DNA of 64,000 nt from a virus (Duplodnaviria; Caudoviricetes), in IMG/VR virus record IMGVR_UViG_3300028833_000053. One strand, 5' to 3'. The notes beneath the pieces were generated by a model. It did no database searches. It saw nothing but the letters and a program-made list of their open reading frames with translations, and was not told the DNA's origin. Positions 56,840-61,650 of this stretch are shown in pieces. Numbering within the stretch: position 1 is the first letter of the stretch; every line of letters starts with the position of its first letter. The position numbers and the translations under genes are program-made.

Positions 56840-56865
56840 AAACGGGTTGATTGAATCAACCCGTT
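56840..56865. terminator. Bidirectional terminator between convergent genes
   Basis: AACGGGTTGAT/ATCAACCCGTT stem with A/T flanks. Confidence 0.75.
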
Positions 56866-57613: not shown

Positions 57614-58336
57614 TTAACCGTTTTCAGTGTCCTCTATGATTTCCTCGTCCTCTTCGTCAATTTCCTGCATCAGTTTCAGCATGTCTATTGCACCGCTTTC
57701 CACCATACCGGGCGGCACGTCCTTTGCGTTCGTGACATCCTCGGCTTCCGCGGGGGTTGAATGCTGGCTGTTCCACTTCTCCATGTCAAGTTGGTATTTC
57801 CTCTCAAGGACTTCAAGCCTATGCTCTTGCTTCAACTGCTCCATCTTCACGTTGTCGAAGAACTTTATCCTTTGCTTGTAGAGCGAGGTGTATTCCGAAA
57901 TCAACTGACGAGTCTCGCCAATCAAGGAAGCTGCGGCCGCAACGGTCTCCGCATCCAAGACATCGCAACTTGAAATGATGCCATAGACGTTCGCTATCAT
58001 CTGCTTCGTGGTGTCCACCAAGTCCTCTATGGACTTGAAAGCGTTTTCCACGTTTACAAGATTGTCTATGCGGACGCTGGCGGACCCGTTTCCATCTTGG
58101 GAGTTCTGCTGGAGTTGGGTCTTGGCGTTGTCAATGACCTGGATGTTCTGTTGGAACTTCTCGTCGATTTCGTCAACCTTCGCCTTTGTCTCCTCAATGA
58201 GTTGCGTGGTCTGGTCAATGACGGACTGTGCGTCATCCACTGGGGAAGTCACTTCGTTCATGTAGTCGTCGAAGGACTGTCCTTCCTGGATTCCGAGAAG
58301 TTCGTTCAACCGGTCTTTGTTGATTTGCTCGGCCAT
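57614..58336 (-). CDS. Helical protein, possible gp16-like terminase small subunit
   Basis: IEDLVD...AETVAAAASLIGE pattern; coupled to the sigma gene by a TGATG overlap; identity uncertain. Confidence 0.4.
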   Translation of the reverse strand: MAEQINKDRLNELLGIQEGQSFDDYMNEVTSPVDDAQSVIDQTTQLIEETKAKVDEIDEKFQQNIQVIDNAKTQLQQNSQDGNGSASVRIDNLVNVENAFKSIEDLVDTTKQMIANVYGIISSCDVLDAETVAAAASLIGETRQLISEYTSLYKQRIKFFDNVKMEQLKQEHRLEVLERKYQLDMEKWNSQHSTPAEAEDVTNAKDVPPGMVESGAIDMLKLMQEIDEEDEEIIEDTENG

Positions 58337-58980
58337 CAGTCCTCGTCGTAGTTGTCTTTCTTTCCGCTGTTGATTTCGGCGATGATGGAGTCCTTTTGCC
58401 TGCGCAGGAACTTCGCATCCTGCTCCGTAATCTGCTCGGAGCCAATCATCGTCTTGAGGAAGTTCATATATGATTTGTCAATGTTTATTGAGGGCATTTC
58501 CTCAACTGCGCGTTCAAGGTTTTCCTTCACCAGCTATCGCTTGAAGTTCAAGTCATTGTAGTAGTCCTTAAGATATGTCATTGCACATGACCAGCAAATC
58601 TATGTGAAGTACGCAAAGGGATTCGTGAACGCAAAGTTGTATTTTGGAAGCGCGTTTATGCATCGTATGCAGGATTGCCCTATGATGTCCTCTTTGATTT
58701 CCTTTGAATATCTAACGTAGTCTGGATGTCCCATGTAGTGAGTTGCAATGTCCAGAATCATCTTCCCAAGATATTCGGAGGGTTGGCGTTTGCTTTCGTC
58801 AGGATCGGAATCCCGCCACTTCTTCAGTTCTTCAAGCAAGTCCTTGTTGCTCACAAACGGCTTGCGTTTGGGGCGTGGATTCAATTTCTCCTGCTCCGCC
58901 CTCTGTTTCTATCGCAAAAGAGATTTTGCTAGGTTCTTTTTCTGGAATTCCTCCAGTGATTCGCTTTTCCTTCTTGGCAT
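58336..58980 (-). CDS. gp55: T4 gp55-like late-transcription sigma factor (214 aa, 3 TAG)
   Basis: FVSNKDLL, SEYLGKMI..IA, Y..Y...ED.I, NPFAYFT[TAG]ICW; TAGs 58909, 58600, 58534. Confidence 0.88.
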
Positions 58981-59090
58981 TGTTTATGTTTCCTGTATTA
59001 TGTGGGACATTGACATTATTTGAATGGTCAAATATTGTAAATAATTCCCTTAATACGCGCTTCTTGCTGACAATTATACAGGAAATTGAA

Positions 59091-59503
59091 TTAGAAAATG
59101 CTGCGCACCTTGTGCTGGGGCTTGGATTCGATGTACGTTTCGTCAATGGTTTGGGTTTGGTTCTTCGGCTCGTCTATGTTGTAGTCCGTCCTGTGCTTGA
59201 CTTTCTTCGTCTGGGTCTTCACAACATTGAACCTTCTTGGCAACGTCAGCTTTGACAAATCGTGCTTCACACGGTATCTTGCAAGTTCATGTGCAGGGTT
59301 CACCTCCACTTTGCATACGCGCCTTTTTATCCTGTGGTTGAAGCGAATGGCGTTTACCAAGGTTTCCATGTTGGGAATGTCAACAGGCGTGTCGCCCTCG
59401 TTTTGCACAAGGCCGCCTTTATCGCCGCAAATGATTATGGTGACTCTATCAGAACTTGTTCTCGAAGTCTTGTTTCGCTTCTGCTTTCGCCTTTGCTTCA
59501 TTG
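59091..59503 (-). CDS. Basic hypothetical protein, start uncertain
   Basis: Lys/Arg-rich ORF, TAA stop; 5' end overlaps the read-through tail of the upstream gene. Confidence 0.5.
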
Positions 59504-60669
59504 TATTTCTTTCCCTCTTGAATTGCAAATTCCGCCCTTGTTTCCAAAAGTTCGGGATCCTCATCTGGATATTTCTACTTTAATGCCACTTCAAGTCTTT
59601 TCTACGCCAATTTGTCGTTTTTCCCCCACAAAGGACTGTTCAAGATTTCCGCTGCCATTTTGTCGTCATCGTCATAGTCGTTTTCGTCAAATTCCTCGTC
59701 CTCATCTTCTTCCTCATCGTCCTCGTCCTCTTCATCCTCATCTTCTTCGTCATAGTCCTCGTCATCGTAGTCATCATACCAATCATCATCCTCGTCCCAC
59801 GGATATTCCTCATCCTCGTCATACTCATCATCTTCATCCCACGGATATTCATCATCGTCATACTCGTCATACTCATCGTCATAGTCATCATCATAGGGAT
59901 CGTCGTAATCTTCTTCGTCCTCATCATCTTCGTAATCGTCATCTTCCCAATCATCTGGATCATACGGCTCTTCATCTTCCGTTGGCTGCTTTGCGCCCTC
60001 TTCCTTTGCAAAGTCCTGTGCAGCCTGGTCATCCGCCTTGCCGCAGTCATATGAGATATGCGTAAACGAACCCGTCAAGTCGAATTCCACGAAACCCGTT
60101 CCGTCTTGAGTCAATTCAACGTCGCCAATTGAAGTTGGATGAAAGTTGTGTATTATCCAATGGTGATGCGTTGCGTCATCCGGTTTGTTCCTCAACCTTA
60201 TTTCCAAAATGTCCTCGTCAGGACTCAAGTTGTATTGGTTGCCGATTGTAGCCCTGGGGTCGCCGGCGACCAATGGATGACCCGTCTGCAAAACCATGTT
60301 GCGCAAGTCGTAGTAGTGGAAACCCTCTTTGTCCGCAATGATGGTCATGGTAATATCCGTGTTCTCATACATAATGTGCGTGGGAATGGATATTGTGAAC
60401 CCGGCATGTGAGAGTTCAAGGGTGTTTACTGAAACCCCGGGAATGGTCACGTTCTTGGCGAAGAATATGGTTCTCGGCCAACGGCTCCAAACAAGTTCGT
60501 ACTTGCACTGGACTATGGGTTGGGACAAGTTGAAAGCGTCAAGGTACGTCTGGAGGTTGGGCTTTCCATCCTACCATCCAGGATATTTGGACTCCGACCC
60601 GCGTTCAACTTCGTTGTACTCAAGGTAGTCCTTTCTGCTGTATCCTTCGTCGTTTTCCTCTATTGCCAT
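59449..60669 (-). CDS. gp19/gp54-like tail-tube-fold protein with Asp/Glu/Tyr tract (406 aa, 3 TAG)
   Basis: FAKNVTIPG, ITMTIIAD, FHPTSIGDVEL...FDLTG; TAGs 60571, 59602, 59575; GGGAG RBS. Confidence 0.78.
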
Positions 60670-60770: not shown

Positions 60771-61514
60771 TTAGTAGTTTGCAGCAACACCACCGCCGGC
60801 GCCAAACTGTGACGCGAACGCGGTAGTGCCTCTATTGCCCTGTCCAGGAGACATTGGGTCTTCGGTTGCGATGTCCATTTCGCCATCGCCATTCGCCTTT
60901 CCGAGCTTGTTGTTTCTGCTCGTGTCGTCGTTCTTCTGGCCGATAGGCGTACCGGCGGACTGCTCCCAATAGACGGACTTGAAGTCAACGGAGAAGGTGG
61001 AAATACCACCAGCGGTGTTGGAAAGTTCAAGACCACCAACCTTGGTCACTCTCGTGCCGTGGATTAGCGTGGATTCAACAACGTCTTGGTAGTTTGGAGC
61101 AAGCAAGTCAACCTGAATCCAAGGCTCGTTGTCTCCGCCGGAGCCAAGCCTTGTAGGACGCCTGTTCGCCTCAAAGTAAGAACCATCCGTGATGTCGGGG
61201 TTGATGCAAGCAGCCTGCCAGTCAAGCATTGCGCGGCGAAGGTCGCCACGGACGTCTGCATACACCGTGATGGAATGATCCTGTCCCATGTCAATCGTCG
61301 TTGGAACCGGAATCTTGTAGGCGCGATACTGCAAGTCCTCGAAGTTCACGGTTCTGTCGGGAAGCGTGAAAGCGTTTCCATAAACCTGCATTCTCTCCAG
61401 AGTCGTGTCAATCACAGCAAAGCCGCTGTGGAACTTGATTTCGTACATTGTCTATGTACGGACTTGGTCTTCGTTGAACAGCGTTATCGCTTGTGTCAGA
61501 TTGTAATTTGCCAT
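60771..61514 (-). CDS. gp19: Major tail tube protein, gp19-like (247 aa, 1 TAG)
   Basis: FTLPDRT...YR...PVP, ITVYAD...R.AM.DW, VGGLELS...STFSVDF; TAG 61452 at codon 21; GAGG RBS; TTGTAAATA at 61559-61567. Confidence 0.8.
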
Positions 61515-61650
61515 GTTTCTGTTACCTCAAATAAAACTGTAGTTTGTTCGTTTGGTATTATTTACAATTTTCCGTTTGGTTTTCGTGGATCGGACATTTC
61601 CTATCCCATCACAGTTTTTATTTACAAACATTTGACGAAAATTGAAGGAT

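Follow-up and report, generated by a model that had tools for sequence, protein, structure and literature searches.

A TAG-recoded gp55-family late sigma factor may place late transcription downstream of the code switch in a jumbo phage

The 64,000-nucleotide stretch of DNA analysed here (the window) comes from IMG/VR virus record IMGVR_UViG_3300028833_000053, a member of the Caudoviricetes, and carries on its minus strand a gene related to that of gp55, the late sigma factor of phage T4. The frame opens with an ATG at 58978-58980, closes with a TGA at 58336-58338 and is interrupted by three in-frame TAG codons, so that under the standard code translation would terminate after 23 residues. The gene and its TAG codons are as follows.

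58336-58980, minus strand: coding sequence of the gp55-family late sigma factor, 214 amino acids with TAG as glutamine (assigned by PHROG 234, 7d7c_F and tblastn)
58909-58911, minus strand: TAG at codon 24, in the basic N-terminal tail
58600-58602, minus strand: TAG at codon 127, the glutamine of the NPFAYFTQ motif (NPFAYFT[TAG]ICW)
58534-58536, minus strand: TAG at codon 149, private to this genome within its clade, with an equivalent TAG in the homologous locus L067

The original prediction, made from the letters of the window, had described a gp55-like gene with TAGs at codon 24, in NPFAYFT[TAG]I and at 58534, and a standard-code product of 23 residues; we confirm each of these points and place the gene on the minus strand.

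The family assignment was likewise upheld by profile alignment with TAG translated as glutamine. The protein matches PHROG 234 ('late sigma transcription factor') at E=2e-21 and the T4 gp55 chain 7d7c_F at E=1.8e-5, T4 NPHAYITQ aligning with NPFAYFT[TAG] and the T4 glutamine lying opposite codon 127. A tblastn search returns 491 GenBank phage records, with a gp55 annotation on the matches listed and E values down to 4e-9 for gp55 genes of T4-like phages, and an exhaustive HMMER search finds 585 representative proteins at E<=0.001. By megablast, the region has no match among GenBank phages. Neither Sigma70_r2 nor Sigma70_r4 matches the 214-residue protein above the Pfam cut-off; the weak Pfam matches that do appear (Ald_deCOase, tRNA-synt_1c and others) all fall under their cut-offs and were set aside as noise. 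Across 150 cluster representatives, the motif columns hold N in 110, P in 104, F in 129, Y in 129, T in 115 and Q in 57. Homologs had been said to have glutamine in NPFAYFTQI, and glutamine does occupy position 127 more often than any other residue (57 of ~138 cluster representatives), but arginine (27) and threonine (21) also occur there, so that it is not universal. The protein carries a basic N-terminal tail of 37 residues, three of its 11 glutamine codons are TAG, and the ratio of nonsynonymous to synonymous substitution rates against the closest ortholog is ~0.04, which implies strong purifying selection. Only one good PHROG 234 match exists in the whole phage genome. We take the gene, in this phage with its TAG-for-glutamine code, to encode what is probably a functional late sigma factor of the T4 gp55 type, a claim that shares the probability we attach below to the reading as a whole.

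The genome that holds the window (G000) is a single circular contig (C1) of 433,895 bp with a 127-bp terminal overlap, a GC content of 46.6% and 36 tRNA genes; two complete relatives, G001 and G002, measure 414,060 bp and 418,068 bp. A codon-usage gene caller gave 513 genes in G000, 117 of which contain in-frame TAGs, 298 in total against 3876 CAA or CAG codons (hereafter CAR). Treating TAG as a sense codon restores long frames in the window (3356, 1559 and 834 amino acids), and many genes are recoded by in-frame TAG in G001 and G002 as well. In ortholog triplets from the three complete genomes, the residues opposite TAG are glutamine in 124 cases, lysine in 37, glutamate in 30, and tyrosine and leucine in seven each; by codon, CAG accounts for 90, CAA for 34, AAG for 30 and GAG for 16, while tyrosine, leucine and tryptophan codons are rare. 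Judged by these columns, TAG stands for glutamine in G000. Recoding is unevenly spread: in some same-strand blocks, 19-54 genes long, TAG occurs 0.2-0.6 times per 1000 codons, and among 209 ortholog triplets, 141 families never carry TAG and 24 always do, where independence of the genomes would predict ~2 in the latter group. The gp55 family is one of the 24. It is the shortest of them and the sole regulator, in the company of terminase large subunit (TerL), portal, sheath, sheath-stabiliser and tube genes.

A suppressor tRNA or a release-factor gene had been suggested as something to look for elsewhere in the genome. The first is present, and syntenic in both complete relatives; no RF-1 domain gene was found in G000, nor was a gene with a GlnRS/GluRS catalytic domain. 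The three tRNA genes, each on contig C1 of its own genome, are these.

C1 410487-410576, minus strand, G000: tRNA-CUA of 90 nt with a long variable arm (class II), U1-A72 and A73
C1 ~297,870-297,950, G001 (L033): tRNA-CUA of 79 nt with a glutamine-like U1-A72, G73 and an 8-nt T-loop
C1 268611-268687, G002 (L053): tRNA-CUA of 77 nt, class I

The G001 gene was missed by ARAGORN, yet folds as a cloverleaf. Upstream of the G000 gene lie a terminator hairpin and then a TTGGAT-N17-TATAAT promoter with an GTATAATTGAA core. The locus, the terminator and the GTATAATTGAA -10 element are common to the three genomes and the three tRNA bodies are unrelated, an arrangement suggestive of cassette exchange at one fixed place of expression.

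How is TAG distributed with respect to transcription? Enriched upstream 8-mers resolve into three promoter classes; note that sites were assigned to classes by motif alone. Class 3 is a conserved unit of ~60 nt, TTGACTT-N17-TGaTATACTGT, with 35 copies in G000. Class 1, TTTACA-N17-TATAAT with a GTATAATTg core, has 73 intergenic sites in G000. Class 2, which we call late, has the consensus ataaTgGTAAATA, no -35 element and 102 intergenic GTAAATA sites in G000; 86 of 110 [GT]GTAAATA sites fall within 200 nt upstream of a start on the same strand. This motif, also written TGGTAAATA, is an A/T-rich, -10-only element and resembles TATAAATA, the T4 late promoter that is the target of gp55. From homology and motif together we infer that the gp55 described here would recognise TGGTAAATA.

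The three classes differ sharply in the genes they head. In G000, the first downstream gene carries TAG in 0 of 29 cases behind class 3, in 11 of 66 behind class 1 and in 47 of 83 behind class 2 (Fisher p=6e-7). The pattern recurs in the relatives: listing G000, G001 and G002 in that order, first genes with TAG number 0/29, 0/2 and 0/11 behind class 3, and make up 10%, 9% and 3% behind class 1 promoters with a good -35 element, as against 57%, 51% and 65% behind the late motif. TAG thus tracks promoter class, which, as far as motifs can tell, supports a temporal partition of TAG use like that in the published code-switch model. That many late mRNAs would need the code switch for their translation, as originally proposed, is borne out by the 51-65% of late first genes with TAG. 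As a further feature of class 3, its unit includes a conserved leader with GAGGA, and genes headed by TATACTG number two in G001 and 11 in G002.

These counts also speak to the objection that the host itself reads TAG as glutamine so that nothing is gated at all. Set against it, the phage maintains its own tRNA-CUA at a conserved locus, first genes behind its strongest sigma70-type promoters contain no TAG in any of three genomes, and TAG is in excess in the last 12 codons of G000 genes (23 observed, 7 expected), where it may reflect real TAG stops. We know of no bacterial lineage in which TAG is glutamine, and give this explanation next to no weight. The C-terminal excess is repeated in both relatives and is exemplified by an SbcC-like gene (C1 159339-161234); it may consist of genuine TAG stops, backed up by a nearby TAA or TGA, in genes expressed before the switch.

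The gp55 gene itself is preceded not by the late motif but by a -10 element of the other kind, GTATAATTG, and its leader contains a second element.

59073-59079, minus strand: sigma70-type -10 element GTATAAT(TG), GTATAATTG, ~90 nt upstream of the gp55 ATG
59036-59043, plus strand: inverted late-type motif TGTAAATA inside the gp55 5' leader, TGGTAAATA in five relatives

Each of the six clade genomes retains the -10 element, unaccompanied by a -35 element (best match 1 of 6). Within the leader, the inverted late-type motif comes ~30 nt after GTATAAT, and this order is kept in six genomes (the one studied here and, ~40-100 nt upstream of the respective ATG, L001-L005). In each complete genome, the arrangement GTATAAT-N10-45-TATTTAC is essentially confined to the gp55 leader. 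The inverted motif may mediate negative autoregulation or give rise to an antisense transcript fired by gp55. We also considered TATTTAC(C/A) as the -35 element of a second sense promoter and rejected it: no conserved -10 lies 16-18 nt downstream in the six genomes. Crucially for what follows, gp55 and tRNA-CUA sit behind the same kind of sigma70-type -10 element.

TAG codons in gp55 persist in related recoded phages. The gp55 genes of five close IMG/VR relatives (75-87% identity) contain one to three TAGs each, all lying in codons 24-33 of the N-terminal tail; the codon-24 column itself is TAG in four of the six clade genomes, and some TAG falls within codons 24-33 in six of six. The TAGs at codons 127 and 149 are private to G000 within the clade, codon 127 being CAR (or threonine) in the five relatives. 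Fourfold-site identity among relatives is 0.30-0.59, that is, near saturation, so that the shared TAGs are not simply inherited. An alignment-based IMG/VR search (A1) yielded the five loci of the single-protein search and no others. A second (A3) gave 80 loci, all in the standard code and hence uninformative on recoded gp55; four A3 loci initially flagged as possibly recoded with a TAG-free gp55 proved to be antisense shadow open reading frames or same-frame neighbours, with a ribosome-binding site and ATG right after the TAG. Single-protein IMG/VR scans with the gp55 of L062 and of L061 found nothing.

More distant homologs tell a similar story. In four cluster representatives the protein stops precisely after residue 126, and the underlying DNA then shows TAG at position 127. 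A TAG at 127 is accompanied by two to three TAGs in the tail in L061, L062/63 and L066, and in the gp55 of L067 the codons equivalent to Gln66 and Gln149 are TAG. At position 127, TAG arose independently in several distant lineages (L061, L062/63, L066/L169, L157 and L166). Because L061-L063, L066 and L067 had been picked as truncated fragments and are therefore biased towards carrying TAG, we scanned metagenomes with glutamine-free patterns. Of the 29 loci recovered, 13 have recoded flanks, and in all 13 gp55 bears TAG (one to eight per gene). TAG is absent from gp55 in standard-code contexts (L171 and L178); the gp55 of L152 and of L177, the latter in one cluster with L178, lacks it too, but the contigs of these two do not extend far enough for their code to be assessed. 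Across six clade genomes and 13 loci, then, every gp55 in a recoded context carries TAG, and the predicted persistence (five of five close relatives, 13 of 13 recoded loci, none in standard-code relatives) is what we observe. The scan also turned up large recoded contigs with a TAG-bearing gp55, namely L162 (ODAI012083904.1, 432,079 bp), L156 (162 kb) and L150 (105 kb), whose gp55 proteins are 37-50% identical to the L062 type.

Having laid out the distribution of TAG in gp55 and across promoter classes, we can ask what circuit these elements might form. We propose that host polymerase would transcribe both tRNA-CUA and the gp55 mRNA from sigma70-type -10 elements (GTATAATTG in the case of gp55), and that ribosomes on the gp55 mRNA would get beyond codon 24 only if tRNA-CUA prevailed over release factor 1 of the host. 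Completed gp55 would then direct host RNA polymerase to the ~100 TGGTAAATA late promoters, where more than half of the first genes would need TAG read-through once more. In logical terms, tRNA-CUA would permit gp55, and tRNA-CUA AND gp55 would together permit virion proteins. Any delay would come from the accumulation of the tRNA against release factor 1, and aborting at codon 24 might avoid the production of truncated sigma fragments. That gp55 synthesis requires read-through of TAG follows from its sequence; which form of polymerase reads which motif, the timing of events and the selective value of the TAGs are deduced from sequence features and should be read in that light. We put the probability of this explanation as a whole, with late transcription wired downstream of the code switch through a TAG-bearing gp55, at about 0.6. 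In form, such wiring is a coherent feed-forward loop governed by AND logic. To that extent the feed-forward AND gate of the original prediction stands, the suppressor being needed both for gp55 and for the 51-65% of late first genes with TAG, but the part of it that makes gp55 the activator of late genes is a prediction from homology and motif.

Several observations weigh against this explanation. To begin with, gp55 is not the only candidate sigma factor in the genome, which also encodes two members of the sigma70 family.

C1 423521-424285: sigma70-family gene with regions 2 and 4, behind a class-3 promoter
C1 362807-363838: sigma70-family gene in which only region 2 is detected, behind a class-1 promoter

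Both (L008 and L009) score above the Pfam cut-off, and both are TAG-free in all three complete genomes. A second, TAG-free sigma driving the late promoters was among the eventualities that the original prediction had named as damaging, and because two TAG-free sigma70-family genes exist, gp55 as sole driver of the late promoters can be put forward only as an inference. Imagine that one of the sigma70-family proteins, perhaps the one in which only region 2 is detected, recognised TGGTAAATA: gp55 would be auxiliary and late transcription would escape the gate. Yet the late motif has no -35 element and resembles T4 TATAAATA, the sigma70-family genes themselves sit behind early-type promoters, and their products could use the two promoter classes that do have a -35 element. 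We therefore regard such a bypass as very improbable, and the chance that late transcription has a factor besides gp55 as small. A three-tier cascade, leading from host sigma through phage sigma70-type factors to gp55, is plausible. A further point concerns the partners of the protein. T4 gp55 works with the co-activator gp33 and the gp45 sliding clamp, and a gp45 clamp was not found in G000 with the Pfam models PF09116 and PF02916, although a divergent clamp is possible.

The remaining points on that side concern the TAGs themselves, and they are best seen alongside the alternative that they favour. Suppose that gp55 is made when suppression is already on, so that a change from CAG to TAG is neutral. 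TAGs would then drift in passively, and the dependence of gp55 on the suppressor, although real, would have no regulatory role. The density of TAG in gp55 is indeed unexceptional by some measures. It ranks eighth among 362 genes, with a binomial P of 0.04 relative to the genome rate and of 0.17 relative to TAG-containing genes, and comparison with TAG-permissive genes in the three complete genomes gives Fisher p=0.04, 0.13 and 0.54. Set against flanking genes in a test stratified over the 13 metagenome loci, gp55 is enriched (p=0.002), an effect that weakens to p=0.055 after dereplication to eight clusters; the neutral probability of finding TAG in eight of eight clusters is 0.04, largely owing to one lineage. 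TAG columns also turn over fast, 162 of 174 being present in one genome only and 12 of 174 in at least two of the three, and two of the three TAGs in the gp55 studied here are private to G000. Furthermore, tRNA-CUA and gp55 share a promoter type, so that no temporal separation between them is evident from sequence, and the promoter assignments behind all such comparisons are made from motifs. The worry that TAG density might simply equal the neutral expectation was thus partly justified: by these counts gp55 exceeds its neighbours only modestly, lying near the level of TAG-permissive genes, and selection for the wiring of TAG into gp55 is not proven.

Other features fit passive drift poorly. 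One is that every gp55 found in a recoded context carries TAG, as described above. In two lightly recoded contexts, gp55 stands out strongly from its neighbours: in L062 it has four TAG and eight CAR codons where neighbours have two and 73 (p=0.003), and in L169 the corresponding counts are 4/7 and 1/110. Genes behind sigma70-type promoters otherwise avoid TAG. Finally, TAG is concentrated in the N-terminal tail despite saturated synonymous sites, with a share of glutamine codons of 38-46% there and 7-13% in the core. Keeping in mind the density figures, we rate drift as unlikely, though as an account to be taken seriously.

The excess in the tail needs to be read against a genome-wide tendency. 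In families with conserved N-termini, TAG makes up 18.7% of glutamine codons up to codon 40 and 7.6% of those further downstream (p=1e-4), a bias that weakens to p=0.03-0.04 with promoter- and RBS-anchored starts. Relative to this 5' baseline, the gp55 tail excess is marginal (P=0.03-0.15), and in a wider set it amounts to 35% versus 20% (p=0.07); both figures belong with the adverse points above. Two trivial sources of the pattern were rejected. Miscalled start codons do not produce the 5' bias, which holds (p=1e-4) in families whose N-termini coincide and are conserved, and a tail rich in K, R, E and Q does not attract TAG, whose share is 10-12% in charged windows and ~13% elsewhere; local charged composition thus fails to account for the clustering, which again speaks against drift. 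The preprint by Borges et al. (bioRxiv 10.1101/2021.08.26.457843) contains no mention of 'N-termin' or 'truncat' and uses 'position' once.

The genes around gp55 bear on the same question. They and the associated signals are listed in order along the window.

56841-56865, strand not assigned: terminator-like hairpin, the first one downstream of the gp55-containing run
57614-58336, minus strand: 240-aa acidic coiled-coil gene, its ATG overlapping the gp55 stop (TGATG)
59091-59564, minus strand: 157-aa open reading frame directly upstream of the gp55 promoter, with a C-terminus, H[KR]VRGIF-stop, kept in relatives
59449-60669, minus strand: tail-tube-like gene (PHROG 45) with three in-frame TAGs
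60771-61514, minus strand: tail-tube-like gene (PHROG 45) with one in-frame TAG, heading the co-directional run that contains gp55
61559-61566, minus strand: late-type motif TGTAAATA, 52 nt upstream of the tail-tube gene
61619-61626, minus strand: second late-type motif TGTAAATA, 112 nt upstream of the tail-tube gene

Embedded as it is among virion genes, gp55 has an upstream late promoter and no terminator-like site between the late motif at 61559-61566 and its own start, so that late read-through into gp55 is possible, as passive drift would have it. The 406-aa tail-tube-like frame and the 157-aa open reading frame, which are read in different frames, share 116 nt at 59449-59564 (minus strand), the 3' end of the former and the beginning of the latter; a miscalled start, a programmed frameshift or a genuine overlap may account for this. 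The 240-aa coiled-coil gene has 21 CAA/CAG glutamine codons and no TAG, and its product may be a scaffold-like virion protein or a partner of gp55. In distant lineages, among them one represented by a 303-kb scaffold in the standard code, a homolog likewise comes after gp55 (E 1e-19 to 1e-102).

This TAG-free neighbour lends some colour to yet another possibility, which is that inefficient read-through holds sigma low throughout infection, the TAGs acting as an attenuator and not as a timer. High-copy genes avoid TAG, the scaffold-like neighbour being a case in point, TAG is front-loaded genome-wide, and additional negative control is suggested by the late motif that lies inverted in the gp55 leader. 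What is hard to reconcile with a tuned dose is the variation in TAG number among orthologs, from one to eight, and we consider such dose control improbable.

Where does this leave the proposal that late transcription is wired downstream of the code switch through gp55? Placing the transcriptional activator behind the switch, as originally envisaged, holds insofar as gp55 needs read-through and carries TAG in all recoded relatives; it does not extend to proven selection, nor to a distinct temporal gate. Because tRNA-CUA and gp55 share a promoter type, the gp55 TAGs would most likely act as a delay or as a threshold filter on the accumulation of sigma. A more ambitious version can be offered only tentatively and is, in our view, possible but doubtful: that the gp55 TAGs, front-loaded in the N-terminal tail, are a selected checkpoint, that many independent recoded jumbo-phage lineages use the code switch as master timer of their late transcription, and that the inverted late promoter adds negative autoregulation, turning the whole into a feed-forward circuit with feedback.

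If gp55 does lie behind a stop-codon gate, the code switch would control late transcription as well as late translation. TAG-free high-copy late genes (capsid, scaffold, sheath) would then also wait for the suppressor, which would explain the tight late programme of genomes that are only partly recoded. There is a practical corollary for annotation, in that standard-code gene calling fragments gp55, and its distant homologs appear in protein databases as such fragments.

The closest known system in terms of the protein is T4. The likeness extends from homologous sequence, the NPxAYxTQ motif and small size (7d7c chain F; PHROG 234) to an A/T-rich, -10-only late promoter before virion genes, GTAAATA here and TATAAATA in T4. 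Unlike its T4 counterpart, the gp55 described here has TAGs that depend on suppression and a basic 37-residue N-terminal tail, and it sits among virion genes next to a conserved acidic coiled-coil neighbour; in addition, no gp45 clamp was detected with Pfam models.

In terms of recoding, the relevant precedent is the code-switch model, in which standard-code genes are expressed first and a suppressor tRNA then permits recoded structural and lysis genes (bioRxiv 10.1101/2021.08.26.457843; PMC9523058), a general model also presented by Kienbeck et al. We share with it recoding as post-transcriptional control, with a TAG-free early set and a recoded late set. The model of Borges and Peters gates structural and lysis proteins, whereas here the late-class transcription factor is itself recoded; G000 further differs from the code-switch phages in that no RF-1 or GlnRS/GluRS gene was found in it. 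The word 'sigma' is absent from the texts of Borges, Peters (PMC9523058) and Kienbeck, and Devoto et al. mention sigma factors generically only. The original prediction was not aware of any description of the circuit. In the literature on recoding with sigma factors or late transcription we found no description of a recoded late sigma, but the general gating of late genes by a code switch is already published.

Two further systems come close from different sides. In crAss-like phages, transcription-machinery genes also carry reassigned stop codons, since Yutin et al. (PMC7886860) report in-frame stop codons in RNA polymerase genes and suggest that divergent suppressors escape detection. In that case, however, the recoded genes are phage RNA polymerase genes in a transcription block, the large polymerase is described as a virion component that transcribes early genes, no late-class sigma is concerned and no feed-forward logic was proposed. 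Ho et al. (PMC7969014), for their part, built a synthetic suppressor-tRNA coherent feed-forward 'leak dampener' that reduces leaky expression. As in our proposal, a suppressor tRNA permits nonsense read-through in a regulated gene; theirs is engineered, inducer-driven and housed in E. coli, whereas the arrangement around gp55 is natural, its recoded node is a sigma factor and its function is predicted. The phage circuit would be a natural counterpart of such engineered suppressor-tRNA feed-forward circuits.

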